A stretch of DNA of 62,868 bases, filler included, from Chrysochromulina tobinii (lineage: Eukaryota), in the NCBI GenBank assembly GCA_001275005.1. It is 9 parts of 9 records of this genome, joined end to end, with 100 filler letters (N's around TTAATTAATTAA, not from the genome) between each part and the next. Parts side by side here need not be neighbours in the genome. Positions count along the whole stretch, not along the records: positions 1 to 14,380 come from JWZX01000460.1; 8 more parts are not named here. One strand, 5' to 3'. The notes beneath the pieces are model-generated. The model was not told the origin of the DNA. It ran no database searches and saw only the letters and a list, made by a program, of their open reading frames with translations. Made by a program: the position numbers and the translations under genes. This document shows positions 1-58,990 of this stretch, in pieces. Positions within the stretch are counted from its first letter, which is position 1. The number at the start of each line of letters is the position of its first letter.

Positions 1-705
1 CGGAAGTGGCGGCGGCGGCTCCGGCGGCGGCAGCAGCACAGGCTCGCCAAGAGTGCTAACCTCGCCGTCGTCGCCTAGTCGCCATGCAACACACCACGTG
101 ACGTCGTCGTCGCCCAGCTCGGCGCCCGGCTCGGTGACCTCGGCCGGCAGCGTCGCCGCCGGCGCCGACGACGGCGGCTTCTGGCGGCCGCCGCCCGCAG
201 TAGTTGTGCGCTCCCCGCCAGCGTCCAGCTTCTTCCGTACCGGTGCGATGCCCAAGGTGTCGCCGACCAGCATGCTTCGCAAGGCCGGACTGGCCACCAT
301 CGCGGCCAGCAAGCTGGGCGCCAACGTGGCCGCGTCCACATGGCCGCTAGGGCACGTACGTGGTGGCCGATAGCGGCTAGGGCATACTTCCGTGTTCACA
401 CCTCCTAAAACACGTGTTCACACCTCGTGTAGCCACAGAGCCCGAGATGAGAGAGCCGGCACGACGGTGGTCCAGGTCCGCAGGTCGGCAGGTCGTCTGG
501 AGTTCAGACACGCCTCACACAGCATCACAGGTTTCGTCTTGCGAACCTTTTGGAGTGAAGACTCGACCATAAGAACAATTTCCAATTTGTCCTCAGAGGG
601 AGCTCCATGATTAATCGGTTCAAACATGTCCAATTTGTCCTCAGAGAGAGCTCCTCCAAACATGTCTAGTGTGAAGTTCACACGGCGCCGCCGCGGACTC
701 GAGCG

Positions 706-3245
706 ATGCTCTCCACCACCATATTTGCCCTCTCGATGACGGCTGGCGGCAGTGCATCGGAGCGAAAAGTCAACGCCTCCAGCAAGTCGCACCCGCACAT
801 CACCGGCTTGCGCTTCGTGCACGCCGACCCTGAGGGCACCCGCGGCCGCCGCCGACGCCTCTCGCCGACCGGCATAGGCATGCACGGCAATCTGCATACA
901 CTCGGCTACTTTTCTGCCGACGTGTGCGTGGGCACACCGCCGCACTCGTTCGACCTGATCGTCGACACGGGCTCGTCGCTCACGGCCATTCCGTGCAACG
1001 ACTGCTCCGCATGCGGCGAGCACACGCACTCAAACGGGCTGCGGCACAACCGCTTTGACCCCGGGATGTCGAGCACCAGCCAGGCGGTCCAGTGCAGCGA
1101 CCCGGCAGGCGCGTGCTCACACTGCGACGAGAGCCGCTCGTGCGTGTATTCGGTCTCATACACCGAGGGTTCCGCCATCCGCGGCCGCATGTACTACGAC
1201 AACTTTTTGTTCTCGGCGACGAGCGGCCTCAACCCCCGGCCTGTGAGAGCGGCGTTTGGATGCCAGAACTACGAGTCGGGGCTCTTCCGTAGCCAGGTCG
1301 CCGACGGCATCACGGGCTTCTCGCAGTCGGGAGGGTTCGGTGGTACCCTCTTCTCGTGGCTCGTGCGATCAGAGCAGGCGCCCAACGTCTTCTCGATTTG
1401 CCTGAGCGACGAGGTCGGCGCGATGGTACTCGGCGGAAGGGTACCCGATCCGCTCAAGCAGCGCGCACTGACGTGGATCCCCTTCGCAAGAACGGGCGCG
1501 TACGACATCACGGTCGAGGAGATGCGCATCGATGGCCACAGCCTCCCGGTCAACCGACAAGACTTCCGATCGACGATCGTGGACACGGGCACCACCTTCA
1601 TGTACCTACCGCCCTCTGCGTACACCCAGGTGCGCAACTACTTCCTAACCCAAGCCGAACCCTTACCCTTACCCTTACCCTAACCCTAATCCTGACCCTA
1701 ACCCTGACCCAGGTGCGCGACTACTTCCTCAGCCACTGCCCCTGGAGCGACGGCGTGAGCCCTACCGCGTGCGCGAGACGCGTGGCGCCCGGCGAGTATC
1801 CCGACGACTACTGCTACACGGCGAGCGGCGCCGAGGTAGCTCGGTTCAAGCCCTACTCCCTTCACTTTGCGGGCGGCGTGACGCTGGATATCGGGCCGCG
1901 CCAGTACATGTACGAGCTCCGCAGTGGCGTGTGGTGCATGGGCATCTTCAACAACGAGCACAACGGGCTCGTGATCGGCGCCGCCGTCATCCGAGATCAC
2001 GAGGTCGTCTTTGACGTAGAGACGCAGCGGCTCGCGTTCATCCCGTCGAGATGCCTCGAGCTTCAAAATGGCACGAGGTCGAGCGTGCTCGAGGGTGGGT
2101 TCGGCATCAACGGGTGCGGGTCCGCCCAGGAGATGCCGCCGCCGCCGCCCACTCCATCGCCGCCGCCGCCCAACTCCAGCCCGCCGTACCCGCCACCTTC
2201 CCCACAGCGGCCAAGCCCCCCACTCACACCTCCAGGGGTGGAGACGCCACTGCCGCCGCCCATCCCGCCGCCCCGTCACCGCCCGCCGCTGACCACGCCG
2301 CTGACCACGCCGCCGCCCATGCTGCCGCCGGGCGCCACCTTGTGCACCGAGGTCAACCGCGGCGCGCGCTGCGAGCTCGATTGCAACGGCATCGGTACCT
2401 TCGACCTGTCTGGCTTCCGCCAGAACTACACGGTGGTCGACGACGCCAACCAGCGGCACTACTCCTTCGAGCCATGCGGCACAGACACCAGCCAGCTGCG
2501 GAGCCTGTGCCCATCGTCCTGGGTACCCAATCCGGTAGCCGTGGAGTCGTGGTGCCCGGGAGCCGCCAGTAGCAGCCCGGGGTGCTGCGCGGCTCTTGGC
2601 GACTTGAATAGCGTCGTGTGCACCGCGCAGGGCCCGGCCGGCATCTCATGCACGTTCTCCAACGGCGACGGTGGCCGCGCCGTGCAGTTCGACTACGTGT
2701 GCACGGCGATCTCCGCGTCAAACTCCGCGGCAGCTCACGTCGTCAATCCGCTGGAGCTCACGCCATCATTGGCGATTGAGCACGTGCACGACTCGGGTCT
2801 GCACTACCAGGTGACCCTGAGCGGACCTTCCGGATGCGCGGCAACCTCCCGACGAGATCGGGAGTCTTGGAACCCTTTCTCCTCCGGGTCCTCCTGGACG
2901 GGTTACCTCGACTTGATCAGTAACAGCACCACGTGGGAAGAGGCGTTCCAAAAGATTGAGCACCAGCTGGAGCGCGACCTACCCGCAGGTGAGTGCCACT
3001 GATTACCACTGATGACCTGCCTTGCATGCAAGTGCTCACTGGAGCGCGACTTACCCGCAGGGGCGATTGCCGCGATCGCGATCTTGTCGCCGCTCGTCGC
3101 GTGCTGCTTCTGCCTCCTCATCTGCATGTTGCGCTCCAGACTCTTGCGGCAGCGGAAGGAGTTTGAGGAGCGGATGAACCTGGTGCAGACGGCGAACAAG
3201 ACACTGTCCAGCTTCAACGCCAACGACGAGGATGACGGCTTGTGA
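706..3245 (+). CDS. A1 aspartic protease, plasmepsin V/ASP5-like, with Pro-rich linker, Cys-rich MRH-like domain and C-terminal TM helix; exons 706-1629, 1713-2988, 3061-3245
   Basis: Two catalytic DTG motifs (IVDTGSS at 964, IVDTGTT at 1582), PCxxCxxCGxH segment, FGC, GITG, IGAAVIRDHEVVFD. Two GT-AG introns join ORFs 706+, 1356+ and 3012+ in frame. Hydrophobic AIAAIAILSPLVACCFCLLICML near the C-terminus. Confidence 0.88.
1630..1712 (+). other. 83-nt phase-0 intron filled with telomere-like CCCTAA/CCCTTA/CCCTGA repeats
   Basis: CAG|GTGCGC...CCCAG|GTGCGC. Removal restores YTQ-VRDYF and avoids the TAA at 1681. Confidence 0.9.
2989..3060 (+). other. 72-nt phase-1 intron with CCACTGAT-type repeats
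   Basis: GCAG|GTGAGT...CCCGCAG|G. Removal avoids the stop at 3000-3002 and joins the TM exon. Confidence 0.85.
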
Positions 3246-3834
3246 GGCTAGATCTGAGCTGCGTTGGTGTGCGTCGGTGACGGGCTTTACTTGAACGTCT
3301 GAACGGTGTCCGTTATAAGGACTCGCTCGCGCGGTCTCGACTCGGAGGTGTGTCATGGCATGTATGGCGGTGGGGTCTGCGTGCGGAGTCTCGTCCCGTG
3401 GCGACGGCTCGTCCACCTCGACGAGGGCCGGGCGGCCGCCGTCCGCCTGCCCGGGGGCCCCGCGGCGCCGCGCACCGCACCGTCGTCAGTACACCTCTGT
3501 CGGTCATGTGTCTCCGCTCACCTCACGTGATCTGACCCGTGGGGCCTGAAAGGCTTAAAGGCCTCTGTGCCGAGCAGATTTTTGCGCAACTTGCGGAAGA
3601 GCGCGTGTCGCACTGCGCGCACACGCAGGGCGCAGGCCCCACCGCGCGGCGCGGCGAACCGCACGGCGGGAGCGGCATCGACAATACACCAATCGACAAT
3701 ACACCAACACGCGCACCAACGACGGGATTACCGGGGGACTCCACGTCCTCCGTATGACGTGTTAGTCTGTTCGGAACGCAGGAGGCGGCGCTCCCAGCAC
3801 TACTACAGTCTCGAGGCTCGCCACTAAAAAGTCA

Positions 3835-4419
3835 CTACGCGGCCTCGACGGCGGGGGGCGCATGCGCTGGTATCTTGAGGTGGCTCTGCACTCCGAGCGC
3901 CTGCGCGGAGCTTTCTTTACGCGCGGGTGCACTTCGGCGCGCTTCGACGCGTGCCCGGTGCTGTTCGAGCTTCATTTTCTCGCGTTCGAGAATGCGCTCC
4001 TCCATCATCTTCTGCTCACGCTGCATCTGGGTCTCCATCTGCTTCTGCTTCTGCTGCATCATCTGCTCTTGCCATACGCGCTGCGGATCGATGGTGTCGT
4101 CGCGAAGACCGAGGCCGTGCCACGCAGCTGGCCCCACCGCCGAGTCCTCAATGCGCATCACCTCGATGCCTTTACCGCCGAGTCCGGCGGTGCGCTCGGC
4201 GGAGCGCTGCTGACGGCGCGCGGCCAGGCGCTGAGCCATCGAGCCGCCTGCAAAGGAGTCGTCTCCATTCGGCGTGTCAGGTGGAGTGGATCCTTTTTTG
4301 CGGTCCATGCCATGCCGCTCGTCAAGCTTCCTCTGGATGTGCTCTGGCAGCACGGGCCGCGTCGGCCCGGTTGCCAAGCCCGGGTGCCCTGACGGTCCTC
4401 GACGCACTGCACTCGCCAT
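3835..4419 (-). CDS. hypothetical protein with Q/E/M-rich coiled coil
   Basis: ORF 3835-4467 with a likely ATG at MASAVRRG and natural-looking composition. No family recognised. Confidence 0.55.
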   Translation of the reverse strand: MASAVRRGPSGHPGLATGPTRPVLPEHIQRKLDERHGMDRKKGSTPPDTPNGDDSFAGGSMAQRLAARRQQRSAERTAGLGGKGIEVMRIEDSAVGPAAWHGLGLRDDTIDPQRVWQEQMMQQKQKQMETQMQREQKMMEERILEREKMKLEQHRARVEARRSAPARKESSAQALGVQSHLKIPAHAPPAVEAA

Positions 4420-4739
4420 GACCTCGCGGGAGGAGGACGGCGCGACGCTGAGGCTACTCGAGACCACCGGCAGGTCTCAGGAGCGCCCAAGAAGGAGCGT
4501 GCGGCGCACGCTGCGTCAGCCAAAGAGAGGGCGAGCGACGGTCGGCGAGGTGCTCGGGGTCCCTTCTTTTTTGGCCGAAGACGGGGAAGGAGCTCATTAC
4601 GGCGCGACTTATCGATCCGTCAGCTTTATAAATAAGGCGACCACGTCAGTCTTCAGTCTGAGAGTCACGAGTCATTAGTGGCACTGTGTCTGTGCGAGAG
4701 CCATTCTCCTTTTTAATCACACGCGCGCGGCGTGTGTAT

Positions 4740-5906
4740 CTAAGAGGCAGCAGCGGTGGCAGACGCGCGCTCCCTCGAATGCTTCCTGAAGAGGACGCAC
4801 AGGCAGAGCAGGCCGTAATTGCTGACGAGGGTGACGGCGTGCGTACGCCAGTGGTGCGTGTGCAAGAAGTGGGCGAGGAGCACGCACACGAGCGCGCTCT
4901 GCCCGTACACGATCGCCATGTGCACCCGGTCCGTGTTCTCGAGGTAGAAGCGCAGAAGCTCGGACTTGCCTAATTCGGGCTTGCCCTGATCGTGTGGGCA
5001 GTCGTCCGCCACCACGACGGCCCCTCCTCGCTTCGCGCCTCGCGCTGCCATACCCGCTGCCATACCCGCTGCTCCGCCACTGCCGCTGCCGCCACCGCTA
5101 GCGCGCTTGCCCGACGAGCTCGCGCCAGCTGCACGGCACGAGCTCGGTACGGCGCTCGCAGAGCCGCCTGACGTGATGGCCATGGCGGCGGCGGCGCTGC
5201 CGTCTGCATGGGCGGCCGAGGGCGTCGGCAGCTCGGCACCACCAGCTGAGCTCGCGTCGAGCCATCCCTCGAGCTGGAGCCGCTCGGGCGTGATCGAGCA
5301 CAGCAGCTCGAGCAGCTCGAGCACGAGGCAGTTGCAGAACGTGAGCAACGCGATCCGACAACTCTCGTGGTGCTCGTGTAGTATGAAATCGTTCCGCGCG
5401 AAGATGGAGGGCAGCGCGCCCACGTAAAAGGCAGCCTCGGCGCAGTCGAGTACGAGCGCGCGCACGTGCTCGGCAAAGTGAGCGCCCTGCCACGAGTTGC
5501 TGTCCAGCCCGGGGTCGTGCGCCACCGCAATCAACGGCGGAAGCAGCAGCACCATGTCGACGAGCGGCCGGCCCGAGAAAAATGCATGCCATAACATACT
5601 GATTCCTGCAATGGAATACAAGGCCGCGACAAGCCCGAGGAAGAGGGTGGTCCCCGCGCGCTTGGCCAGCGGTTGGAACTTCGCGTAACCCGCCACGAGG
5701 TAGCGGCGCGCGCAGCCCAAGACCTCGAGGAGCAGCAGCATGTACGAGTCTTGGCGCGGATGCGTGAACGTGTACAACATGTGGTGATGCAGCAAAAGGA
5801 GTTGCAGCGTGAAGGCGAATATGAGGAACGAGGTGCGGTGCCAAGTGAGCAGTGCCGGTGGGTGCGCCATCGCGTAATACTGTGGTCGGGTCATGTACTG
5901 GAGCAT
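4740..5906 (-). CDS. TMEM39-like multi-pass membrane protein
   Basis: Several TM helices. Segments AAFYVGALPSIF and LRFY...HW...LVSNYGLL resemble the TMEM39 family by eye. Start codon uncertain. Confidence 0.55.
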   Translation of the reverse strand: MLQYMTRPQYYAMAHPPALLTWHRTSFLIFAFTLQLLLLHHHMLYTFTHPRQDSYMLLLLEVLGCARRYLVAGYAKFQPLAKRAGTTLFLGLVAALYSIAGISMLWHAFFSGRPLVDMVLLLPPLIAVAHDPGLDSNSWQGAHFAEHVRALVLDCAEAAFYVGALPSIFARNDFILHEHHESCRIALLTFCNCLVLELLELLCSITPERLQLEGWLDASSAGGAELPTPSAAHADGSAAAAMAITSGGSASAVPSSCRAAGASSSGKRASGGGSGSGGAAGMAAGMAARGAKRGGAVVVADDCPHDQGKPELGKSELLRFYLENTDRVHMAIVYGQSALVCVLLAHFLHTHHWRTHAVTLVSNYGLLCLCVLFRKHSRERASATAAAS

Positions 5907-6112
5907 GCTCGGCGCCCGCCGCGCTCTGCACCGCGCTGCGCTGCGCTCCCAGTACGGGGTGGTTATCGGCCACGAAAGGTCACGAGCCACGTGGCAGCTC
6001 AATCGGCGTGTGAAAAGCGGGGCACACGGGTAACGACGTACGAGCTTTAAAGCAAACGTTTCGTTAGTCCGACACTTCGCGCTCGATTTTACAAACTTAA
6101 GTTACGGCTCTT

Positions 6113-6123
6113 TTTGGCGCGAA
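6113..6123 (+). promoter_or_regulatory. putative E2F-binding site upstream of MCM6
   Basis: TTTGGCGC(GAA) matches the TTTSSCGC consensus, ~20-28 nt before the MCM6 ATG. MCM genes are canonical E2F targets. Confidence 0.55.
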
Positions 6124-6140
6124 GACGCGGCGCGGCAACG

Positions 6141-8252
6141 ATGTCAATGCAGGGGATCGAGGCCGAGGTCACCAACCTGTTCGTGCAATTCATCAGCGAG
6201 TTTTCTAGCGACTCGGACGAGCAGCCGGCGTCGGCCTATGGCGAGGCACCGCCAAAGGACTACCTCGACCAGATCGAGTCGATGAAGACGAATGAACGCA
6301 CGACGCTCTACGTCGACTGGAGCCATCTGCAGCAGCACGACATCGACCTGGCTGACGCGATCAAAGAGCACTTTCACCACCTGGAGCCATACTTGCGGCA
6401 GTCGGTCAGCCGCGTGATGGCGTCGCTGCACGAGGGCTACGCACAGGATCGCGAATTCCACGTCTCCTTCTTCAACCTACCGCACTTGTGCGCAATCCGA
6501 GAGCTGCGCACGGACAAAATCGCCACGCTGATCAGCTTCACGGGCACGGTGACGCGCTCTTCGGACGTGCGGCCCGAGCTGCTACAAGGCATCTTCCAGT
6601 GCGAGCTTTGCTCGACGCTCTCCGATCCAGTCGCGCAGCAGTTCAAGTACACGCAGCCGATCAAGTGCAAGAACCCGACCTGCGTCAACCGCTCGGAGTG
6701 GCAGCTGCGCAACGACATGTCGAAATTCGTCGACTGGCAGCGTGTGCGCGTGCAGGAGAATGCGAGCGAGATGCCGCCCGGCTGCATGCCACGCACGCTC
6801 GACGTGATCCTGCGCGGCGAGATGGTCGAGCGCGCCAAGGCGGGCGACAAGTGCGTCTTCGCGGGCACCCTTGTCGTCATCCCCGACGTGGCGCAGCTGG
6901 CCGCGCCGGGCGAGCGCGTCGAAGTGGTGAACAAGGTGGACGCGCGCAACCCGACCGAGGGCGTGCACGGCCTCAAGTCCCTGGGAGTGCGCGAGCTGAC
7001 GTATCGCATGGCCTTCCTGGCGAGTTCAGTGCAGCCGGCGGAGGCTCGCCTGGGCTTGGTGTCCATCCGCGACGACCCCGACGACGCGAGCGCGCACTTT
7101 ACGCAGGCCGAGAAGGAGCTGATCTACCGCATGCGCAACGACAAGAACATCTACCACAAGCTCGCCGCCTCCATTTGCCCGACCGTGTACGGGCACGACG
7201 AGGTCAAGCGCGGAATCTTGCTCATGCTCTTTGGCGGCGTGCACAAGTCGGCACCGCGCGACAAGACCAAGCTCCGCGGCGACATCAACTGCTGCCTTGT
7301 TGGGGACCCGTCGACGGCCAAGTCGCAGTTCCTCAAGTTTGTGTGCTCGATGCTGCCGCGCGCCGTGTATGCCTCTGGCAAGTCCTCTTCGGCGGCCGGC
7401 TTGACGGCGACGGTGACGCGCGACGAAGAGACGGGCGAGTTTTGCATCGAGGCGGGCGCTCTCATGCTCTCCGACAACGGCATCTGCTGCATTGACGAGT
7501 TTGACAAGATGGAGCAGCGCGATCAGGTCGCGATCCATGAGGCGATGGAGCAGCAGACGATCTCGATCGCCAAGGCCGGGATCCAAGCGACGCTCAACGC
7601 TCGGGCATCCATCCTCGCCGCCGCCAATCCCGAAGGGGGCCGCTATGACCGCAAGAAGACGCTGCGACAGAACCTCAACCTGACCTCGGCCATCATGTCG
7701 CGCTTCGACCTGTTCTTCGTCGTGCTCGACGAGCTCGATGAGCGCAAGGACTACGCGATCGCAAAGCACATCGTCTCCATTCACCAGCACGGCACGCTCG
7801 TGGGCCACGGCGCGGAGCCCGAGTATTCGGTGACGCAGCTGCAGCAGTACATTCGGTACGCGCGGACGCTCAAGCCGCGCCTGTCGCCCGAGGCCGCGCG
7901 CAAGCTCGTCGAGTTCTATCGCGAGCTGCGCCAGCAGGGCGAGAGCGATGCCAACACGGGCTCGTACCGCGTCACTGTGCGCCAGCTTGAGGCGATGATT
8001 CGATTGGGCGAGGCGCGCGCGCGAGTGGACCTCGAGCCGGTGATCAGCGTGCGACACGTCGTCGAGGCGCGCAAGCTGCTCAAGGCGTCGATTGCGCGTG
8101 TCGAGCACGAGGATGTGGACGTCGACGAGGTGCTCGCCGACGACCAGTTCGACGACGAGCTCGCGCGGCAAGCGGACGAAGCTGAGAGGCGCGCTGCGGC
8201 CGAGAGCGGCGTTGCGGACGATGGGGACGCGGGCGATGGTGACGGCGACGAT

Positions 8253-8329
<77 letters not shown>

Positions 8330-8669
8330 GGCTGTCGATGGCGCGCGACGCGTGAAGACGATCCCCTATCCGAAGTACAAGAAGGTGGAGCGCTCGCTGT
8401 GCGTCTTCATTCGCTCGCGTGAGGAGGCTCTGGGCGCGGGCATTCAGCAGCGCGAACTAGTCGAGTGGTACCTCAGCCAGCAGGAGGAGATTATGTCGAT
8501 GGAGGAACTCGCCGCTGAGCGCCGTCTCGTGCGCCAGGTCATCCAACGGCTCCTCTCGACCGATAAGGTCCTCATGGAGGTGCAGACGCCTGAAGGCGTC
8601 GAGGTGCCTGAGGGCTTGCGGCAGCACGACGCGCGCTACCTGTCTGTACGGCCGCACATTGAGCTGTGA
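6141..8669 (+). CDS. MCM6: DNA replication licensing factor MCM6
   Basis: MCM zinc finger (CELC...CKNPTC), Walker A GDPSTAKSQFL, IDEFDKM, SRFD arginine finger, VTVRQLEAMIRL, C-terminal winged helix. Intronless, with a 25-Q tract. Confidence 0.95.
8253..8327 (+). repeat. (CAG)25 polyglutamine microsatellite in MCM6
   Basis: Uninterrupted CAG run of 75 nt. Confidence 0.95.
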
Positions 8670-9158
8670 GGCTGGCGGGGAGCGCGGGCGACCGCTCGGG
8701 CGCTGTGGCGGGCGCGTGGGCGCGGATGCGGCGCGGCTGGCCGGCGGCAGCGCGGCCGGTGGCTGCCGGCTGGGGGCGAGGCGATCTTGAGGCGAGCAGC
8801 TTGGCAACAGCTTGGCAGCGACGCGCGCACGGCGCGGCGCGGTGACAAGGATGTGATTGATGCGAGCTAAAAGGGGTCCTCGTCTACCTTTTTGATTGCA
8901 TGTGCATCGTTTATTTGAGTTTGCAGTTTCGTGCTGGCGTTTGGTTAAAAATCTCGATGGTCCATCGGCGATACAGTAACTAAGAATGACGAACCAAACG
9001 TCAAATCGAACGTTAGTTTGGCCGCGCACGGGGCCGTCCCGTCAAAACGGGGTACTAACCGTACACGCCGACATGCACGCGCGATTAGACGAGTGGTGGC
9101 AATTCGTACTACAAGGAGACGAAAAGGAGCTGCATCTTTTGACGGCCGCACCACGCCA

Positions 9159-12100
9159 TCAGGCATCGTGTCCTCGACTGGCGTTGAGGGCGCCAGGCAG
9201 CGTCGGAACCGTAGCACAGTCCAATGAATTGAACAAACCCTCCAGCTTGGCAAACGGCAGGCCGTTGAGCCGCGCTCGGCTCGGCTCGAGGAGCGCCGAG
9301 TAGTCCCGGCTCGCGCACGGATGCAGGCGCTTCCACCCGCCTCCTTGGGCTCGACGGAGCTCCGCATCAACGGCTTCGATGATCTCGGCGTCGCCGCCGC
9401 TCACGACGGCGCTTGTCCGGCCGCACACCGGCGCGCCGGTCGCCTCCGCTCTCGGTACATCGCTGTGCGCGGCCACGCCGACGAGGTTGAGCAGATCTGT
9501 GAGCACCGCCGCCTTGACGCGCAGGTCGAGCGCCGTATCGGTGGCGAGGGACGGGTCGAGGTTGACTTCGAACACGTGCGGCTGAAGCGCCGCGTCGAGC
9601 ATCACGTCGAAACCAAAGAGTTGGAAGCACCGCCCCCCAGTGGGAGGCACGTACGTCGCGACAGCCTGCCCCATCGTCGGCTCCGCCGCGAGGAGCGTCT
9701 TGATGAGCGCGTCCTCGACGGCGCGCCACGCGGCCTCGGCCCGCGCCGCGCCCACGTCGGCGGCGAGGCGCGTGTGGAACTCGTCGAGACCGAGCTTCAG
9801 CCCGGGGGGGACGGTGCTCGGCACGGCGCTTGGTACCTGGTCGGCGGCATGGGCGCCGCCGCCGACGACGCTGCCGACGACGCGTGCGCCGGCGCTCCCG
9901 GCGTGCTTGTTGATCGCATAGTTGGTCAGGTGCCTGTGTACGTTCGAGAGGTCGTCCAACGAGTACGGCGCCGCCGCGAGCCGTGCGAGCCCCTCTCGAT
10001 GCAAATAGAGGACCAATGGCCGCCAGCAGGTGACGAGCACGTACAGCCGAAGGTCGTTCTTGCGCCCATCAATGAGGTACGGCGGGTGGATGTAACGGCT
10101 CGCGATGCCACGCCGGCTGGTGACGGTTTCGGGCACGCCGGCTGAGCCCCAGTGCAGCGTGATGCCCTGCCCACGACACGCCGCGACGGGCTTGACGATC
10201 CACACTCCGCGCGGCTCTGCGGCCATCGCCCCCCGCAGCGGATCCGCCTCGGCTGGCAGCACGTAGCTCTGTGGCGCGAAGGCGAAGGCGTCCGTCCCAT
10301 ATTTGGAACGCATGCGATCGAGCAAAGCCCATAGCGCACTCTTGGTCGTCAGGCAGCTGGCAAGAGGGAACTTGTTGATGCACTGGTGCGGCTGGAGCGC
10401 GAGCAGCTGTGCGGGGCTCACCTGCCCCGCAATCAGTGGCACTCAGTGGCAGTCAGTGGCAGTCAGTGGCACTCAGTGGCACTCAGTGGCACTCAGTGGC
10501 ACTCAGTGGCAATCAGTGGCAATCAGTGGCAATCAGTGGCACTCAGATTTAATCAGTGTTAATCAGTGGCACTCAGTGGCACTCACCTGCCCCGCAATCC
10601 ACAGGAGAGAGCAGCCCACATCCAAGCTCATGGCGCGCTCGAAGCCGTGCTCGAGCAGGATGCACTGGAGGACGCTGGCAAAGTGCGGGTGCGTCGAGCT
10701 GCAATAGTAGCGCGGAGGAGAGGCAGCGAGGGGGGTAGCGAGGGAAGTAGCAAGGGGCTGCGCGGTCGCTCTTGCTGGCGCGGCCGGCCGGGGCTGCCAG
10801 GGGCGCTCCTGCCAGCTATCGGAGAGCCCTGGGAGCGTCCCAAATCGGACGTAGTGCGGCGGCGAGGGGTAGGAGATGGACGACGGCACGGGGAGCATGG
10901 GCGCAGGGGAGCATGGGCTATCACTTAGGGACCATAGAGGCGCGAGATCGTGCTCGAGATTGTGCGTGACGACTGTCGCCTCCCTCTGCTCAACACAACG
11001 CTCCATCTGCTCAACACAACGCTCCATATGCTCAACACAACGCTCCATCTGCTCGGGGCCGCCGCCGTGAGCGCGGAGCACGGCAGCACACGCCTCATGC
11101 CCCCAGCGTGTGGCATGCTCGGTGGCTGTCCTTTCCAGCGTGTCCGTGAGCGCCACCGCGGCCCGTGCGCCCAGGAGCATCCGTATACAGCCGAGTTGGC
11201 CGTAAAGCGCCGCACGCATGAGGGGCGTGTGGCCTTCACTGACCGACACGGCGTCCACCGACGCCGATGCAGCGAGTAGCGAGTGCACGCACGCCTCATG
11301 GCCACCTTGAGCGGCGAGGTGTAGCGCGCTGAACCCATTCGGTTTCGTCAAATTTGTCGACGCGCCGTGCGCACATAGCAGCTGCACGCACGCCGCGTGC
11401 CCGTGAAGGCCGGCCCAGAGCAGCGCAGTCCAGCCCGCCTCGTCGACCGTGTGCGCCGCCGCTCTCGCCTCAAGGAGCAGCTGGGCGCTCTCGGCATCAC
11501 CCCAGTACGCAGCGTAGGCGAGTGGGGAAATGCCATCCCAACGCGCCTGGTTTGGGTCCGCGAGCGCCCTGAGGAGCAGCCGCACGGTGCGCACGTGACC
11601 GTCGCCAGCGCGTGGCGTGCGATGGTGCGTGCGCTGCGCCGCGTACAGCAGCATCGTCGAGCCATCTGCCTCGACGATGTCGAGCTTGGAGCCATCGTCT
11701 GCATCGAGGCCCGCGCGCGCCGCAAGCAGGCGCTCGACGCATCCCGCATGCCCGCCGAGGCACGCGAGCTTGAGCGGCGTGAGCACGACCGCCCAGCCGT
11801 TGTGAAGGCCGAGCGTCGGCGACGCGCGAGCGTCGAGCAACAGGCCGACCGACTGCACGTCGTCCGACTCACAGGCGATCATGAGCGCGCTCCACTGCGC
11901 ACGGTTGGTCAGGTTGGCGTCTGCCCTGGCTCCGAGCAGCACGGCGAGGCAGCTGTGCTGGCTGCTCTTGGTAGCCAGCAGGACGGCATTCGCACCGTCG
12001 TGCTGGCGCTGCGCATCGAGCGCTGCGGCACCGTGCTCCAGCAGCTGACGCACGATGCTCGCGTGGCCCTGCTCCGCAGCGGCCATGCAAGCCGTCGTGC

Positions 12101-12444
12101 CGCGCCCGTCGCAGCTGGTCGCGCCTGCACCCGCTTGCAGCGCGCTCAGCACGCCGGCCCCATCACCGCGTGCCGCCGCACAGACCAGCTGCGCTGCCGC
12201 GTCTTCCGTCGTGGCTCGCCACAGCGTGCAGCTCACCCGCCTTCACCGCCTTGGAGATGGCGCCGCACAATGCCTGCCGGTCCGTGAGGCTGGAGACGCC
12301 AGCCGCCTTGAGGTCCTGCAGCAGCTTGGGCCGTCCCTGCTCCACCAAAAGGGCGGCCGCGCGCATAAGGTCATAGCCTTCGAGCTGCTCTTGCAGGCGC
12401 TCGAGGTTCGCGACGGCCAATACGTGACCCACCTGGGCCTGCAT
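9159..12444 (-). CDS. ankyrin-repeat + tubulin-tyrosine-ligase-like (TTLL, glutamylase-type) fusion with short N-terminal helical (SAM-like) domain
   Basis: About 10 ankyrin repeats (GWTALLWAG, GFSALHLAA, GHTPLMRAA) are spliced through intron 10586-10422 to a TTL domain (WIVKP, SRYI, GRKNDLRLYVLVT, HLTNYAINK, FGFDVMLD, EVN). The link to exon 12444-12237 needs a 43-nt intron (12236-12194) or a frameshift, which is less certain. Confidence 0.8.
10422..10586 (-). other. 165-nt phase-0 intron made almost entirely of 10-nt (GCCACTGAGT/GCCACTGATT) satellite
   Basis: CAG|GTGAGT...GGGCAG|GTGAGC on the minus strand. It contains in-frame stops and joins the ankyrin ORF to the TTL ORF in frame. Confidence 0.9.
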
Positions 12445-12648
12445 TTCCTCGAGTCCTGAAGGGCATGTGCTGCAAGGGCAGGACCTCGACGGACACCTGC
12501 TCGGCTTCGGTCTGTCGGAAGTTCTGGAACTTCAGTCGTAAGTTTCCCAAAATTGGACGCTCCCACTTTGAACTTGAACTTGACTTGTCTTGTCCCGCAC
12601 GCAGGCAAAGTTGCGATTGAAGACTTCTCTGTCCATTCGGACCCCATC

Positions 12649-14380
12649 ATGCTCTACACCTGGGGCCGCGGCCGCCACGGCGTGCTCGGCCATGGCGACG
12701 ATGAGAGAGACGTTGAGCTGCCACGGCTCGTCTCAGCAGCTCCGCGGCTGAAGCAGATTGCGTGCGGCGAGCTGCACTGCGTCGGGCTGGCCACCGACGG
12801 CGGAGTGTTCACGTGGGGCTGTGGACTGATGGGTGCGCTCGGCCACGGCGAGCTGGGCACGTGCCACGTGCCGACGCCGGTGGCGGGACTGCGCAAGGCC
12901 GGGCCGATGATAGAGGTGGCCGCCGGCCGCAGCCACTCGCTCGCACTCTCCGCGTCCGGCGACGTGTACTCGTGGGGCATGTACGCTGGCATGGCCGCCG
13001 ACTGCGAGCCTGAGCCTCGGCGTCAGCCCGACCTCGGCGGCCACGTGAGGGCCATCGGCTCTGGCGACGAGTACTGCGCGGCCCTGACTGCGGAGGGCGC
13101 GGTGGCGTGGGGCGGCCGGATCGGCCGCAACGCATGCCTCGTGCTAGCCGCGCGCGGTGCCGCGCGTCTCGCGTGCGGCGGCGCGCGCGTGCTCCTCATC
13201 GACGCGCACGGCTGCGTGCAGCTCTCCGGGCCCCTAGGCGCCAACGCCAACGGCGGCGGCGGCGGCGGCGGTGGGTGGTCGTCCAGAGGAGGAGCAGCCG
13301 CCATCGAGCCTGGTGTACTTTTCGAGCCTCCTGTGGGGTCTCGGTTCGTCGAGGTGGGCGCGGGCGCGGCACTCCATATGGCGCTCAGCTCGCACGGCGA
13401 GGTGCATGTCTTCACGCACACCGGGCCCGCAGTGCCCGTGACGGCGCCCGGGACGGTCGCACGCTTCACAGGAGGGCCTGCCCAACCCCTCGCGCTCGAT
13501 GGCTCTGGTCGGCTGGTGCGTCTGGCGACGGAGGTGCATCGACGGTGCGCCGCGCTCCCGCCGAGCGTCGGCCTCGCGCTGCTCCACGGCGCGTCGGAGA
13601 CCGCCGCCACCGAGCGTCTGCTCGGCGCCCAGTTGGGCGGCACCCGGCTTCGGCAGCTCGCCATTGGCGGCGCTCACATGGCCGTGCTCGCCGAGGACGT
13701 GGGCGCCATCGTGGGCACCGGCGTGGGCGCCGTAATGGGCACCGGCGCCGTCGTGGGCGTGGGCGCCGCCAGCCTTGGCGGCAGCACGGTGCCCGCTACG
13801 GCGCGATCGGTCTCGCCGCAACGGATACAGTCCGCCATCGAGCGTGCCCAGGCTGCCATGTACGGCGGTCCCGCGCCGGCCGCTGCCGACGCGCACCCCC
13901 GAACGCGCTGTGGTGAACACTTGCATGCAACGGATGCGCACCCGTCGGCAGCGCGGACCGGGCATGGGCGCGTGTCGCTGGACCGTTCATTCGAGGCGCT
14001 GCCGTCCGTGCAGCCGCCGCCGTCGCCGCCGCCTTGGGTGGAGCCCAAGACGGCGCCTTGGGCGGAGCCCAAGACGGCGCCTTGGGTGGAGCCCACGACG
14101 GCGCCTTGGGTGGACCCCCCGAAGCAAGCCCAGTGGGGGACGGTGACCGAACCAGTCGCCCCGTCACCGCGCACTGTCTCGAGCTTAGTAGTGCCCTCCC
14201 TCTTCGAACCGTCGCCGCAGCCACCCCAGCCACCCCAGCCGCCGCAGCAGCCGCAGCCGCCCCAGCCGCCGCAGCCGCCCCAACCGGCCGGTGGCGGTGA
14301 TGGGCCCGTGGCGGCTCACGGCGGCGGCGGCGGCGGCGGCGGCAGCGGGGGCGGCGGGGGGGGGTGGGGGGGCTCCCCCC
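12649..14380 (+). CDS. RCC1-repeat (beta-propeller) protein with low-complexity C-terminus; 3' end truncated by gap
   Basis: LYTWGRGRHGVLGHG, IACGELHC, VFTWGCGLMGALGHG, VAAGRSHSLALSASGDVYSWG. Confidence 0.85.
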
Positions 14381-20856: not shown

Positions 20857-23800
20857 CTAGATGCGGAAGAAGCGCTTATCGGCCTCCTCCTCGAGGACGG
20901 CGGGCTGGGGCAGCGGCGGCAGGTCCAGGGGCAGCAAGGCGTACCGTGTGTACGGGTCGATGGCGTACGCAAACTGCTTCTTGTCCGCGGCGTCTGTGGG
21001 CGCCTTGAGCTCGGTCAGCCGGTTGACGCCGCTCAAGCGCTTCGTGTACGCGAACAGCGCCTCGCGCCGGTCGAGGAGCTTTTGGTACTCGGCGTCGGAG
21101 ATACGCGCGCCGTACCGGCGGAGCACCGAGTAGCCCTGCACCATGTCAGCACAGTCGAGTACGTGGAAGAAGCCGCGGTTGATGCCGAGGCCTTCGGGCC
21201 TGGAGCGACTCGACAGAGCCGAGCAGTGATCATCAGAAGTGATCAGTGGCAATCAGTGGTCATCAAGGGTCATCAGTGGTCATCAAGGGTCATCAGTGGT
21301 CATCAGTCACCAGAAGGGCTCCTGCAGCGCGTCGCCCACACGCGTCACGAGTACGCGAGAAGCGGGCGAGCCGCCAAGCGTGGCGCCGGGCACAAGGATC
21401 GCCGCGCGGTTGGACGATTTGCGTTCCGAGAAGTCGAAGATCTGGAGCTGATCGGGGACGAGTGGCTGCTGCGCGAGCGCAGGCACGAAAGCGCTGATGG
21501 CCTGGCGCGCATACGCCTCGAGCTTAGAGCGGTCGACGTTCTCGCGCGACGTCGGCTCGGGCACGCTGAGCGAACGCACTGCACCCGCGACCATGAGCGC
21601 CTCCAGATCCGAGGTCATCACGAAATAGTGTGTGGCGCAGTCGGCAAAGTTGCCGCTGCTGCGGTAGTACACGATGTTCTGAAGCACGCAGCCGTTCCGG
21701 GCGAGCTGTGCGAAGGTCTGTTGGTGGTACTGCTGCGACCAGGTCGATTCCGGGAGACGCATCTCCTCGACCGTCTTGTGGTTCTGCAGGTGCACCACGA
21801 TGCACGTCGCGCGCGCGAAGCGGGTCGAGAGCTGCGTGAGGCCGAGCTTCTCGAAGAGCTCGCAACGCGCACCCGTCGCGTCCACGAGCACGTCCGGAGG
21901 CTCACCCGGAGCACCGCCCTTGGGCGCCATCGCTCGTGCGCGACGCTCGTCCACACCGCCGCCAGAGCGCTTCTTCGAGGTGGCGCCGCTGGTAACCGAG
22001 CGCGCGCCAGTGCGCGAATTGCTCGCATCGCTGTGGAGCATGCCGAGCGGCGAACGCGGCGCTGGCGCGCTGCTCGAGTCGCTTTTTGTGTGCAACGCCA
22101 TCGCAACCGGCTTGCGCGGCGACGGTGGGCGCGGCGTGAAGAAGGAGGCAGAGAGGTAGCTCTGTAGCGAGCGCGGGTCTGCGACCTTGCAGTTGAAACG
22201 CACAGTCACCCCAAGGAGCACCGCGACCTTGAGCAGGGAGTGCTGCAGCTGCGAGGTCTGCACATGTCGAAAGTCGGCGCCGCTAAAGATAGACGGATCG
22301 ATGAACTTGATGCCCAGATCAATGAGATCCAGCTCGACCCATTCCCACAGATGGAGTACCTGCAGCCGGCCGAAGCGCTCGCGGCTCTCGAGCACCTCCA
22401 CGCGCAGACCGAGGAAAGCGAGCTCGATGGCGCAGCGCAGGCCGATCGGGCCGCCGCCGATGATGACCGCGCGTCGCCGCGCCGCCTCTCTCGGCAGCCG
22501 TTGACCTCGCGCGTCCATGTCGGCTGCCGAGTATTGCGCCCGCGCCGCGCGGCTGCTCAGCTGTGCGAGGAGCTGGCGTGAACGATGCGGGAGAAGCGGC
22601 ATCAGTGCCTCAGTTAGCAGCGGCAGCAGCGACGGCGTGTCGGCGGTGAGCACGCTGCTACCGCGCCGTCCTAGCACGTCGATGTGGAGCGCCGTCAGCA
22701 GCGCCGCGTGCGCATGAAGCACGTCGGCTGCCTCCTTAGCCGCTAGCAGCTCGCCGAAGGCCGCGGCGGCCGCTCGCTGCTCCTCCGTCATCTCGGCGGC
22801 CGTAAGGCGGGCGGGGTCAAAGCCCAAGCGCTGCGCGCCCGGCACACCCAGCCGTTGCGCACCCACCGGCAACGCTACCGCCGTGCCACGGGGCGTCCAA
22901 GCACGCGGCGACGACGCACGCGGGCTCGTCGAGGCTGGGGCCGCCGCCGCTGCCGCCGCCAGCGCGAGAGGCGCACGCGGCACCACCACTGGTGGCGTCG
23001 CGGGCTTGGCGGGCTTGGCGGGCGGCGGCGAACGGAGGAACAGCTTGAAGGGGGAGATGAGGAGCGAGGCAGCCGTCGGGCGTGTCATGTTAGGTGTACT
23101 GGCGTCGAGCTTTGGATCACTGCCGCCCAACTTTCTAGGCGAGGAGCTCCGAGGGTTCAGGGTCGGCCGAGCGCTGCCGGAACGTCCTTTTGTATTGCAT
23201 GCCTTGGTTGACGTTGTCGCTGTCGCTGCTGCAGTCGTCTCTGCCTCTGCCTCTGCCTCTGCCCCTGCCCCTGCCTCTGCCCCTGCCCCTGCCTCTGCCC
23301 CTTCCTCTGCCCCTGCCTCTTCCTCTGCCTCTTCTGCCGTCTTCGCAAGAGAGCCACACGTGTGGGCGGTCGGTGGCGGCGAGAGGCGTGCGCCCGTGAC
23401 ACTCCCCGTCGTCGACGAGGCGGCCATGAAGTCGGCGGACCGGAAGGAACAGCTCGAGGAGCAGCTGGATGAGGAGCAGCTGGATGAGGCGGTCGATGGC
23501 GCCGCCGGCGTTTGTGCCGGTGTCCAGAAGCTCCCTCCGCTGGTGTTGACGCTCCGGCTGTTGCCGAGGACGAGGGGGAAACCGACGGGGCTGCAGACAG
23601 GGCTCACCGGCGCTCGCTTCGCGTGCTTGCGCCCACAGCCGAAGAACAAGCAGAGCCCAAAGCAGCCAGCAGCAGCAGCCGGCGTGTCGCTCGCCTCGCC
23701 ACTGGTTGTCGGTGGCATCGGCGTGGGCGCTACCTGGATCCGGAAGGTTTGCTGCTGAGGCGAAAGCTCAGGTGACAGCATGCACGAGGTTGTGGGCGAC

Positions 23801-24714
23801 GGGCGATGCGACGATTTTGAGGCTGCTGAGGGCGGCGGCGGTGGCCAGAGCTGCACGGGTGGAGCAGATGCCCGGATCATTTCGTCGGGCATCGGCGCCG
23901 CGGCACTGCGCTGCGAGGAGGTGCGCGCGGAGAAGGCACGCGGCGAGGCGCGGGCCCGCTCGATAGCGGAAGTCTTGGCAGCACGAGCGCTAGCAGATGC
24001 GCAGTTGGTGGCGGACGCAGAAGAAAGGGCGAGTGGCGGCTGAGCAGCACTGGCGACGGCTACCCCGCCGGCAATACTGCTGGCAATTGGACCGGCGGCG
24101 GGCACGATGCCAAGGTTCTGTTGTTTCGAGGACGCCGCGCGCAGCTGACGCTGCCGGTCCGTGTTACGGAAGAGGGCAGCGTTCGCCATGCGGCGCGCTG
24201 CGTCGTTACGCAGCGGCATGCCAAGTCTGATGAGTGCCCTCGCTCCACCTTTGTCGAGCATCTCGGCGAGCGCCATTTCGACCGCAGTCGAGACGGCCGT
24301 GCGCTGGTCGGTGAGCCGCAGCTCACGCAGCGTCGTGTTCGACTGCAACGCGCCAACGATGTTGAGTAGCCCAGGCTCTCGCAGGTCGTTTCTCTCCAGA
24401 TTCAAAACCTCGACGCGCCCGCCTGCATCGGCGTGGAGCGCAGCTGCCAGTGCCGAGGCGCCCGCATCGGGGAGCGTGAGGCCCGAAAGGTTGATCACCG
24501 TGACGTACGGGTTGCCGATGAGCAGCGCCAGGGCAGCCACCTGACGTGGTTCCGGCCAGCGGATGAACTCCTGCTGCAGCGCGGCTGTGAAATCGAGGGA
24601 CGTCATGGACGTGTCATGCGTAGCGATGCGCATGAAAAGGGCGCGCAAAGGCGACGCCGCGTTTAGTGAGGCCGACACAGCCTCGAACTTTGCAAGGTGA
24701 ACGGGGTGTGCCAT
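20857..24714 (-). CDS. tropomodulin-like LRR + MICAL-type FAD monooxygenase fusion; exons 24714-21311, 21199-20857
   Basis: N-terminal LNLERNDL...ALQSNTTLRELRLTDQ...VEMALAEML...RRMANAALFRNTDRQRQLR. C-terminal VIIGGGPIGLRCAIELAFLG, VLHLW, QLQHSLLKVAVLLGV, LQNIVYYR...THYFVMT, and VGDALQEPFW|PEGLGINRGF reconstituted across the intron. Confidence 0.85.
21200..21310 (-). other. 111-nt phase-2 intron with GACCACTGAT/GCCACTGAT satellite
   Basis: TTCTG|GTGACT...CTCCAG|GCCC splits the Trp codon of EPFWP. Confidence 0.88.
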
Positions 24715-24952: not shown

Positions 24953-26164
24953 ATGGTGCTCGTCCTCTCGGACGAGCTTCCAGTGGACGCGTTGCTGCGC
25001 GCGCAACGCGCGGATCACACCAACTTGGTCACTCCCAATTCAGCCAAGCGACAGCTGGTCACGCATTGGGCGTTGCCAGCTGTCGATGCCGTGGCGGCGG
25101 AGGCACGCGCAGCCGCGGTACAGGCTGCGGCCGACGAGTTGAGCTACCTCGTTTCGACGCTCCCTTCGGAAATTGGTGGCTCAGACTACGTGGACATTGA
25201 TAAAGAGCCCGTGCAGCCAGGGCCGCCGTCTCCAGCCATTCTCGAGCAGCGCGCGCGCATGGTGAACGTGACCAACATGCTAGACGGCCACGATCACAGT
25301 TCTTATGAAGGGAAGCTGCTGCTCGAGTCGGTCGACGACGCAACTGTGCGCCTGCTCGATGAGACGCTCGACGCGCTAGAGCGCGCGAGCGAGGACACCT
25401 CTCGGGCTTCCGAGATCAGCTCCAAGGCCATGCTGATGGCTCTCGATAAGATGGACGACTTGGTCATGAGGGCGGGCCCTCGGCGCTCCTCGACGAAGCG
25501 GCTGGTGTTTGACGCCACGCCCGAAACCGCGCCAGGAGCCACCGCGGCGTCCGACGCGGCCCACGCCCCTCCGGGTGACGCGGCCCAAGCCCCTCCGGGT
25601 TCGCCGTTGATAGACACGTTGTCGGCGAGTCAGCCGGCGCTGCCAGGAGGTGTGGGCAGCGAGGACGAGCTGCAGAGAGCCCTCGGCGAGGCTGTGGCGA
25701 ATCAGGGTCGTCTCGAGCACGAGCTGGGCCTCTCGAAGACGCTGCTGGCCAAGGCGCACGGGCAGCTGCTCGATGCTAAGAAGCGCACACACGAGGCTCG
25801 CATGCGGCAGCCGGGCGGCCGATGCGCTGAGGGCGCGACGCAGACGGAGCCAGAGCACCATCGGTCCGTGTTTGAGAGCCTGCACGACGGCCTGTACGAG
25901 CGCGATCGCGTCATCGACATGCTCCACGTCGAGCTCAAGCATGCTTACGAGATCGCTGGCATCACGCGCACGCGCAGGTTTCCTGTGCCGCTGCCCGTGC
26001 CTCCCTCCGTCTGGTCCGAGGAGATCGAAGTCGACAGCAGCACCACCACGTCGGTGACAGCGAAGACGCCCGAGCGCAGGCGGTTATCAACGGCCAAAAA
26101 GTTCCTGGACCGCGGCGCGATCGAGCCGAAGACTAAGGACGCCTCCACCATGACACGAGACGCA

Positions 26165-26214
<50 letters not shown>

Positions 26215-36782: not shown

Positions 36783-38335
36783 TGAAGCCGAAGGCGGCGG
36801 CGAGCGTCAAGCCCGCCAGGGCAGCAAGGGCGAGGGCAGCGGCCGAGATGATGAGCGAGCTGAAGCCGAAGGCGGCGGCGAGCGTCGAGCCCGTCAGGGC
36901 GATCAGCTGCACGCGCGCCGAGCAGCGTGATGCGGCCTGTGCTGCGGAGGCGAAGGCGTGAGCAGCGGCCGAGGTGATGAGCGAGCTGAAGCCGAGGGCG
37001 GCGGCGAGCATCAAGCCCGTCAGGGCGATCAGCTGCACGCGCGCCTAGGAGCGCGATGCGGCCTGTGCTGCGGAGCCGAGGGCCAGGGCAGCGGCCGAGA
37101 TGATGAGCGAGCTGAAGCCGAAGGTGGCGGCGAGCGTCGAGCCCGTCAGGGCTACGTCAGGGCGATCAGCTACAAGCGTGCCGAGCGGCGCGATGCGGCC
37201 TGTGCTGCGCGAGCCGAGGGCGAGGGCAGCGGCCGAGATGATGAGCGAGCTGAAGCCGAGGGCGGCGGCGAGCGTCAAGCCCGTCAGGGCGATCAGCTGC
37301 ACGCGCGCCTAGGAGCGCGATGCGGCCTGTGCTGCGCGAGCCGAGGGCCAGGGCAGCGTCCGAGATGATGAACGAGCTGAAGCTGCAGGCGGCGGTGAGC
37401 GTCCAGCCCGTCAGGGCGATCAGCTGCACGCGTGCCGAGCGGCGCGATGCGGCCTGTGCTGCGCGAGCCGAGGGCCAGGGCAGCGGCCGAGATGATGAGC
37501 GAGCTGAAGCTGCAGGCGGCGGTGAGCGTCAAGCCCGTCAGGGCGATCAGCTGCACGCGTGCCGAGCGGCGCGATGCGGCCTGTGCTGCGCGAGCCGAGG
37601 GCGAGGGCAGCGGCCGAGATGATGAGCGAGCTGAAGCCGAAGGTGGCGGCGAGCGTCGAGCCCGTCAGGGCGATCAGCTGCACGCGTGCCGAGCAGCGCG
37701 ATGCGGCCTGTGCTGCGGAGGCGAGGGTGAGATCAGCGGCTGAGATGATGAGCGAGCTGAAGCAGAAGGCGGCGGCGAGCGTCAAGCCCGTCAGGGCGAT
37801 CAGCTGCACGCGTGCCGAGCAGCGTGATGCGGCCTGTGCCGCCCGAGCCTAGGGCGAGGGCTACGGCCACGATGAAAAGTGATCTGAAGCCGCATGTGTT
37901 GGCGAGCGTCACGCCCGTCAGGGCGATCCGTTGCGCATTCGAGCATGGCAGCCTGTGCTGCCCGAGGCGCACTGCGGCCGACATGATGAGCGAGCTGAGG
38001 CTGCAGGCTGCGGCGAGCGTCCAGCCCGTCAGGGCGATGAGCTGCGTTCGGAGCGGCGCGAGGCGGCCTGTGCTGCGAGGCCGAGGGCGAGGGCAGCGGC
38101 CGAGATGATGAGCGAGCTGAAGCCGAAGGCGGCGGCGAGCGTCGAGCCCTTCAGGGCGATCAGCTGCACGCGCGCCGAGCAGCGTGATGCGGCCTGTGCT
38201 GCGCGAGCTGAGGGCGAACGCAGCGGCAGAGATGACGAGTGAGATGAAGCTGCAGGCGGCGGCGAGCGTCACGCCCGTCACACAGGGCGATGAGCTGCAC
38301 GCGCGCCGAGCAGCGCGAGGAGGCCTGTGTAGTTG
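36783..38335. repeat. tandem array of about 12-13 copies of a 126-127-bp GC-rich unit
   Basis: The ATGAGCGAGCTGAAG anchor recurs at 36851, 36977, 37103, 37241, 37368, 37495, 37622, 37748, ~37875, 37986, 38108 and ~38235. Confidence 0.92.
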
Positions 38336-47800: not shown

Positions 47801-47876
47801 CGAGAGAGAGTGAATTAGGTGGCAGTGAGGGAGGAACAAGGAGGATGCGTTTAAACAGCAAATTATTTTTCCAAAA

Positions 47877-57789: not shown

Positions 57790-58990
57790 ATCTCGAGTGC
57801 ACGCTCGATCGCTGCGGCTGCTGCGGCGGGTGAGAGCGCCATCACCCACATGCCAGGCAGCATCAACTCGAACGCCTCGAGATGCATGGTGAGAGCGGCC
57901 GCGAGCGACGGGCCGAACATGCCAATCCACATGTTCTGAAAACTAAGAAGATCGGCACGTCCTCACCGTAGATACGCTCCAAAAGGGCGGCAGCAGCTGA
58001 TCCATATCTCCCCACTCAGATGCAGTCGGTGGCAATCAGTGGCACTCAGTGGACAAAAAGAAGCACAGCCTGTGATCACAGGTAATCACAGGTAATCATA
58101 TGCAATCACAGGCAATCACAGGCAATCACAGGCAAGCACAGGCAGGCACAGGCAAGCACCTGCTTGGACACAAAGAGCAGGCAGGACAAGAGCCAGAGCA
58201 CTCGCCAGAAGGCACGCATCCCCAACATCTCGAGCACCGACTTGCCCGCGCTCCTCGCGTTAGCTCTTGGGCGAAGCGCAGCCATGTCGCTGAGACGCGG
58301 AGCCGGCACCGGCGCCGCCGCCCTTGCTGCCGCCGCTGGCGGCGGCGCTGCTGCGCTCTTCGAAAACCTCGTAATTGGAGATCTCATCCTGATCGTCCTC
58401 GACCTCAATTTCGCTGGCCGGCGTCAGCGGCGGTGGCTGCGCGGCCGCCGTCTTGGGCGCACCCGCGAGCCGCTGGGAGCACCCGCGAGCACGCTCCAAT
58501 GTCTGTCGGAGTGACAAAGCTCAGCGAGCAGCGGGCAGGTGACTGGGCCGGGCGAGGCTGAGCCCTTGGCAGCCTCGCGCTCGTCCTCATCGAAAAGGAC
58601 GAGGACGGTATCGTACAGGCACGCAACGGAGACGGCGAGCGCGGCGAGCACCGCCAGCCACGCGAAGGTCCGACCAGTACGTACCGCCGACTCAATGTCC
58701 GTCTTACGGAAAGTGTCGGCGGGCACATCGGCGAGGGCGCCCGCGAGGTTCAAGACGCCTTACTGGACGCTGAAGGCGATGCCGCGCGTCGTGGGCGTCG
58801 TCAGCTTCTTGAGTGCCACCGTGTAGATGTGGCCGCCGCCGCAGCCAGAGCAGCGCGAAGACCATGATGCTGCGCTCCGTGCGAAGGCGAGCAGGCCGCG
58901 GCTGACAGCAGCGACCGAGAGGGCGGCGATGGCGGTGTTGAGTACGCCCCACGAGCATCGCGCCGAGCTTGCCAAAGACTACCATGAGCC
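57790..58990 (-). pseudogene. MFS transporter pseudogene with a satellite-filled intron (~58015-58159)
   Basis: TM-rich fragments (TTPTTRGIAFSVQ*GVLNLAGALAD; AFWRVLWLLSCLLFVSKQ|WGDMDQLLPP; MWIGMFGPSLAAALT) with an in-frame TAA at 58760 and several frameshifts. Confidence 0.6.

Follow-up and report, generated by a model that had tools for sequence, protein, structure and literature searches.

Introns filled with short tandem repeats and flanked by duplicated sequence are real in Chrysochromulina tobinii and apparently genome-wide, and they appear to be gained by insertion with duplication. Repeat insertion with target duplication, by whatever enzyme, is in our view quite probably the origin of these introns. 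One of them, at 10422-10586 of the window (the whole stretch of DNA analysed, 62,868 nt with filler), is a spliceosomal intron, its excision predicted from frame and homology, in a gene encoding ankyrin repeats and a tubulin-tyrosine-ligase family domain. Our proposal for this intron, to which we give slightly less than an even chance, is that it likely arose when a short tandem repeat was inserted with duplication of the target, the insert probably having been made by target-primed copying of what was likely an RNA repeat template.

The initial annotation had reported a perfect 18-nt duplication around about 15 units of a pure 10-nt satellite. A sequence check confirmed that 10417-10434 and 10582-10599 are identical, and only about 0.001 exact 18-nt pairs at a spacing of 45-400 nt are expected by chance in the window. 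Analysis with TRF placed the array at 10429-10585 with a period of 10 and 15.7 copies, in line with the number of units first given. The array cannot be called pure, since only 89% of positions match, the units carry C, A or G variants, and two units near 10547-10565 are degenerate and AT-rich. The splice point falls within the duplicate, with 13 of the 18 nt before it and 5 nt after it, and the predicted intron has the GT and AG ends and the branch-point motif of a U2-type intron, with candidate branch adenosines near 10433 and 10453. At both ends the duplicate overlaps the register of the satellite, by 6 nt at the 3' junction and 4-5 nt at the 5' junction. Coordinates are collected in the table.

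Table. Duplication-flanked and related repeat introns in the window, with the exons of the ankyrin/tubulin-ligase gene
Feature	Coordinates	Strand	Remarks
Exon 1, ankyrin repeats	10587..12086	-	First ATG at 12086; frame open from 12242
Upstream duplicate copy, 18 nt	10582..10599	-	Last 13 nt of exon 1 and 5-nt donor; from sequence
Predicted intron, 165 nt, phase 0, GT-AG	10422..10586	-	From frame and homology
Insert, 147 nt, ~15 units of 10-nt repeat	10435..10581	-	CTRAY branch-point-like motifs on sense strand
Downstream duplicate copy	10417..10434	-	Last 13 nt of intron with CAG acceptor and first 5 nt of exon 2; from sequence
Exon 2, tubulin-tyrosine-ligase family domain	9159..10421	-	
Intron, 83 nt, aspartyl protease gene, telomere-like CCCTAA units	1630..1712	+	23-nt duplication (6+17, 1 mismatch)
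Intron, 72 nt, aspartyl protease gene, 10-nt repeat and dispersed non-tandem motif	2989..3060	+	23-nt duplication (22+1, 1 mismatch)
Predicted intron, 111 nt, Mical-like oxidoreductase gene, related 10-nt units	21200..21310	-	Without duplication
Candidate intron, related units after CAG|GT donor at 58159	57936..58159	-	Putative acceptor and gene; without duplication

Excision of 10422-10586 gives a single frame of 972 amino acids that aligns with haptophyte and other homologues without a gap at the junction, and retention introduces five in-frame stops within the intron. Splicing here is predicted on these grounds, as the junction had no RNA cover in six RNA runs; depth was also zero at 10170-10383 in four of four runs, and the RNA data are uninformative either way. 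Both junctions of the array were found in contigs of DNA run X1, although in separate contigs, and no X1 contig covers the whole array. Two other assemblies (L012 and L017), possibly from the same source, are identical to the window locus over 3036 nt. The 10-nt repeat is high-copy: summed contig depth in X1 was 25,736 in the bin of the array against 66-133 in most bins, a figure that is not a copy number. The DNA contigs of X1 and the RNA contigs of X14 and X16 lack one base at 12211, which is likely an error in the window.

The window is GC-rich eukaryotic DNA, and its ABC1 kinase falls into one 90%-identity cluster with a Chrysochromulina tobinii protein. All three introns identified in 1-14380 are of the duplication-flanked repeat type. 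Direct RNA evidence was obtained for the two introns of the aspartyl protease gene. Exactly 83 nt were skipped at 1630-1712 in RNA contigs of X14 and X15, and exactly 72 nt at 2989-3060 in those of X14 and X19, while both stretches are kept in the X1 DNA contigs. Related 10-nt units are indeed present at all three further sites that the initial annotation had assigned to the same satellite (2989-3060, 21200-21310 and ~58015-58159). However, only the intron at 2989-3060, which holds ~2.5 units of the 10-nt repeat together with a non-tandem motif, was both skipped in RNA and flanked by a duplication. Removal of 21310..21200 joins one reading frame.

The non-tandem motif, which ends in a CACAG acceptor, recurs at unrelated loci (window 3024-3039, L002:342-410, L008:1103-1178, L011 near 1700-1745 and L029 near 3001), in some introns fused to satellite arrays, and may represent a separate Introner-like family. 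Elsewhere in the window, long unbroken frames at 6141-8669, 21307-24714 and 24953-28957 (MCM6 and others) form an intron-poor background. A tandem array of ~12 copies of a 127-nt unit with 84% matches lies at 36827-38329, and a 26-nt tRNA-arm-like repeat recurs at 118-nt spacing at 46488-46631, where neither Rfam nor ARAGORN called a tRNA. The AT-richer segment at 60920-61370, possibly a transposon end, has numerous palindromic repeats of the GATACATG type, with a single satellite unit embedded at 61281.

We curated by hand a set of 30 repeat introns, of which 28 belong to the TGAT family, one is telomeric and one carries another 10-mer. The set excludes non-tandem introns, redundant assemblies of a single locus and five arrays cut by contig ends (L003, L008, L010, L013 and L025); L014 was kept although its acceptor is the last base of the contig. 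Flank duplications were counted on these curated introns, an automatic count having mixed satellite into flanks and controls. A duplication of at least 10 nt in splice register was present in 17 of the 30 introns against 16 of 832 mismatched pairs, the former count being inflated because the hand-set boundaries were chosen with knowledge of the duplications. An exon copy scoring at least 10 was found in 20 of 30, compared with 4 of 832 mismatched pairs; either feature was seen in 21 introns and neither in nine, which include two of the three further sites of the initial annotation. Together with the RNA skipping of the two protease introns, these counts bear out the earlier proposal that such introns are made by repeat insertion with flanking duplication. 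Removal of the curated introns left one open frame over the junctions in each of 13 stretches, with a single miss at a junction located at a contig start and weak codon support in five. A simple exon-intron parser picked the strand of the array in all stretches but one (L010), but was used merely to suggest boundaries because it invented introns; a codon-based strand caller applied to array flanks was rejected, being confounded by neighbouring arrays.

The duplications ranged from 10 to 31 nt (median 18). A fixed CAG|G target, as initially proposed, does not describe them: the duplicate supplied both splice dinucleotides in nine of 17 introns (three of these only the AG), the acceptor alone in six and the donor alone in two. 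Nor did a single repeat template account for the inserts, since several 9-11-nt variants, an unrelated 10-mer (L006) and the telomeric hexamer behaved alike, and this variety of units disfavours one fixed template. Several introns contained two to four nested flank-plus-array copies, and array copy number differed between two assemblies of one other locus (L002 and L007). The reverse complement of a unit variant, CATCAG, forms the end of eight of 30 introns (in L001, L007, L002, L008, L013 and L025, and two in L010), as if a fold-back copy had given the acceptor. A different 10-nt unit, which contains CTRAY, is found at L006:57-186 and L029:2880-3000, with duplications of 14 nt and about 30 nt.

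One metagenome scan yielded 18 loci, 11 of them distinct and one being the window locus itself. At 11 of 11 distinct loci the array follows a donor or precedes an acceptor in an apparent gene, and introns neighbouring these arrays were often of the same kind. A search of prokaryote genomes for the unit gave seven matches, one of which (L025) is a further algal-type contig from a prokaryote bin. The other six (L019-L024) are intergenic arrays of the same 10-nt unit in bacterial genomes, two of them inside larger inverted repeats, and may reflect chance or convergence.

The satellite had been described as always lying on the sense strand. This held in nine of nine genes that could be oriented with Pfam, where the gene strand was the strand of the array that reads TGATTG; five loci and the 58-kb site had no usable match. 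The contig-end array at L003:22-168 may be an exception, for it appears antisense to a minus-strand donor, although the gene strand there is putative; its unit variant is almost free of YAG on that strand. Across pooled arrays, CTRAY occurred 143 times on the sense strand and never on the antisense strand, and YAG occurred 5 times on the sense strand against 201 on the antisense strand. With CTRAY present in all three unrelated unit families and with these pooled counts, splicing alone can explain which strand survives. The arrays were sense-biased and, among the distinct metagenome loci, seen only in apparent introns.

Microhomology between duplicate and array had been noted at both ends of 10417-10599, and is present there. 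Across introns it was enriched at the 3' junction alone, in tests of 6-11 junctions each. A strict test gave a mean of 1.75 against 0.66 (n = 8, P = 0.004) and a variant-tolerant test a mean of 3.5 nt against a null of 1.2 (n = 6, P ~1e-4), whereas no enrichment was seen at the 5' junction (P = 0.48, n = 10; P = 0.15, n = 11), where selection for the donor may hide the signal. Enrichment confined to the 3' junction has the polarity that priming by the antisense strand on a template of sense polarity would produce. At 1630-1712 this polarity would correspond to TTAGGG being added to a primer ending in GGGT, as telomerase does (compare PMC2246262). With the haptophyte telomere unit taken from PMC11347835, the repeat is telomeric only at 1630-1712 and not at 10417-10599, where it is a 10-mer; in-register microhomology at the priming end was found, in a small number of junctions.

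Comparison with relatives suggests that the three introns of 1-14380 are likely gains, judged by protein continuity. At least nine full-length proteins with 87-88% identity cross both protease junctions in one ORF (among 15 of 29 cluster members listed). One of these nine lies on a contig of 9463 nt, far longer than an mRNA, and the first protease junction is also crossed by more distant orthologues on contigs of 11-32 kb. The two introns are thus likely absent from the DNA of the 88%-identical relatives, where DNA origin is judged only from contigs being much longer than mRNA. The junction of 10422-10586 is crossed by ankyrin/tubulin-ligase orthologues P0043-P0050 and P0006/P0082, three of them on contigs of 20-34 kb, but by none of nine proteins of the closest clade. 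The start lies within the last unit and duplicate in four of these nine, at the opening codon of exon 2 in three, and further down in two. Since distant orthologues cross the junction and closest-clade proteins do not, this intron was likely gained on the long stem of the closest clade and is older than the two protease introns. Orthologue clusters P0005 and P0007 start downstream of the junction and could be interrupted there. At the C-terminus of P0006 the ORF seems to enter an intron filled with repeats at a different position, a hint that introns of this kind occur elsewhere in related haptophytes.

We favour target-primed synthesis because of the one-sided microhomology, the long and variable duplications, the telomeric case and the absence of intergenic arrays among the distinct metagenome loci. 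In such a scheme a nick in the template strand of the gene would leave a 3' end that pairs with a repeat template over 2-6 nt. Several units would then be added by a reverse transcriptase, which would be telomerase in the CCCTAA case and another enzyme for the 10-mers, and a staggered second cut 10-31 nt away would be filled in to give the duplication. The insert would survive only if the ends of duplication or insert provide GT or GC and AG in register and if the strand of the array carries branch points without competing acceptors. The nested copies could result from recombination between direct repeats and from further insertions in which a splice site already present is duplicated. Target-primed reverse transcription by non-LTR and Penelope-like elements leaves target duplications of variable length, 3'-end priming microhomology and short tandem tails. 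The variable length of the duplication is a likeness to these elements, but neither the window nor the viral contigs yielded an element body, an ORF or a fixed 3' end. A source element had been anticipated; neither a reverse transcriptase nor a template RNA nor a master element was detected among the 28 window ORFs scanned or in viral contigs, and Rfam and ARAGORN returned only one tRNA (tRNA-Leu, 47876-47960) in the window. Five scans of viral contigs for the unit gave 0, 3, 0, 0 and 1 matches, three being two-unit matches in AT-rich DNA that we take as chance. The remaining match, L029, is a phage-like contig, probably a chimeric assembly, that carries a 699-aa frame and ends in 200 nt of algal-type intron sequence. 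A rolling-circle origin on the lariat was considered, as the unit can be read from GT to branch A, and was rejected because exon sequence from upstream of the donor, absent from a lariat, is part of nested copies (L005).

The main rival to target-primed copying is DNA-templated break repair, in which polymerase-theta-type or strand-annealing synthesis repairs a staggered break with repeats copied from other satellite introns, fill-in creates the duplicates, and splicing selects orientation and register. It would need no new enzyme, and intron gain during break repair has been reported for Daphnia and Aspergillus (PMC3296678). The chimeric insert at 2989-3060, which joins an array to a motif common to non-tandem introns, the nested flank copies and the inverted-unit ending of eight introns also resemble synthesis-dependent end joining, the signature of which is direct or inverted repeats (PMC7407515). 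However, break repair predicts microhomology at both ends, for which the 5' junction was not enriched, and many neutral intergenic insertions, against the uniformly intronic appearance of the distinct metagenome loci. Unbiased repair should leave intergenic arrays, because only ~40% of the C. tobin genome is coding (PMC4580454). We regard this explanation as possible, if rather unlikely. An assembly artefact at a high-copy repeat could account for the array not being spanned by any X1 contig and for the difference in copy number between L002 and L007, but we find it hardly credible, given that both junctions occur in DNA contigs, that four proteins of relatives begin inside the same last unit and duplicate, and that the sister introns are kept in DNA contigs but skipped in RNA contigs.

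The duplication could also have come before the repeat. A proto-splice site may have been duplicated in tandem, or an older intron may have been present, with satellites arriving later by conversion and slippage and some flank copies being boundary duplications of the 'mirage' type described in amphioxus (PMC3087553). Both splice sites lie in the 18-nt duplicate, the length of which is divisible by three, and nine of 30 repeat introns have no duplication. Moreover, the intron seems common to a clade up to ~11% divergent. That its duplicate is nevertheless perfect is left unaccounted for by target-primed copying, as are the nine introns lacking a duplication. Against this order of events, eight of 17 introns take one splice site from the insert, so that duplication alone would yield no intron; the two sister introns are likely absent from 88%-identical relatives; and the repeat unit cannot derive from local sequence because it recurs at unrelated loci. 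We therefore consider it improbable. Similarly improbable is a low-complexity Introner, a non-autonomous element with its own donor and acceptor ends that is moved by a transposase and whose internal array grows by slippage. Recurrent ends would fit such an element (the commonest start is the same 7-mer in 6/30 and the commonest end the same 9-mer in 5/30), and Introners with 4-bp duplications and without terminal inverted repeats (TIRs) have been reported in a Chrysochromulina (PMC9860276). Nevertheless, ends, length and unit vary between copies, telomeric and unrelated units behave alike, and the duplications are long and variable where those of described Introners are fixed at 3-9 nt.

These introns share with Introners (PMC9860276; bioRxiv 10.1101/2020.10.14.339549) insertion with target duplication, splice sites that the duplication or the insert or the two together supply in several registers, and a strand bias. 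They differ in the length of the duplication and in having as insert a tandem array whose unit and length vary; the contrast with TIR-bearing Introners drawn in the initial annotation stands, as no TIRs or end-to-end similar copies were found among the 30 introns. The 2022 Introner survey dropped low-complexity families by design. Interstitial telomeric sequences at breaks (PMC2246262) likewise consist of short tandem units added internally with in-register microhomology, some with target duplication. Duplication is the minority case there (6 of 130 rodent and 4 of 25 primate loci), the passages concerned make no tie to new introns, and most units here are non-telomeric. Interstitial TTAGGG tracts are described as frequent in a coccolithophore (PMC13518057). 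Introns gained by double-strand-break repair in Daphnia, Aspergillus and Drosophila (PMC3296678, PMC11782384) also carry flanking direct repeats, but their inserts are unique or organellar filler, whereas here one repeat family extends over many genes with longer duplications. The exon/intron boundary copies of unstable number inside amphioxus introns, and the tandem-duplication model (PMC3087553), fit the nested copies of L001, L002, L003, L005 and L013, but in the present introns the copies are separated by a foreign repeat that often gives a splice site.

Our literature search returned no description of repeat-filled, duplication-flanked haptophyte introns; the family lists of the Introner survey may include Chrysochromulina cases. 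Tandem repeats of 10-11 bp were reportedly found enriched in introns in the 2013 Emiliania genome paper. More speculatively, and with a rather low chance of being correct, haptophytes may possess a transcription- or splicing-coupled intron factory. In it, a telomerase-like reverse transcriptase would use the nicked template strand as primer at cryptic splice sites within transcribed exons, copying a branch-point-rich repeat RNA, possibly intron RNA, so that introns would seed introns without a transposon body; telomerase would do likewise with CCCTAA. Gain rate, orientation and enzyme can be tested, because relatives of 88% identity with empty sites appear to exist and the lineage has cultured members. 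The origin of new spliceosomal introns is a long-standing question, and mass gains have so far been credited mainly to Introner transposons. In this genome a tandem repeat with long, variable duplications seems to supply many introns. Insertion of repeats is likely an overlooked route to new introns, with a bearing on gene annotation and repeat masking in haptophytes.
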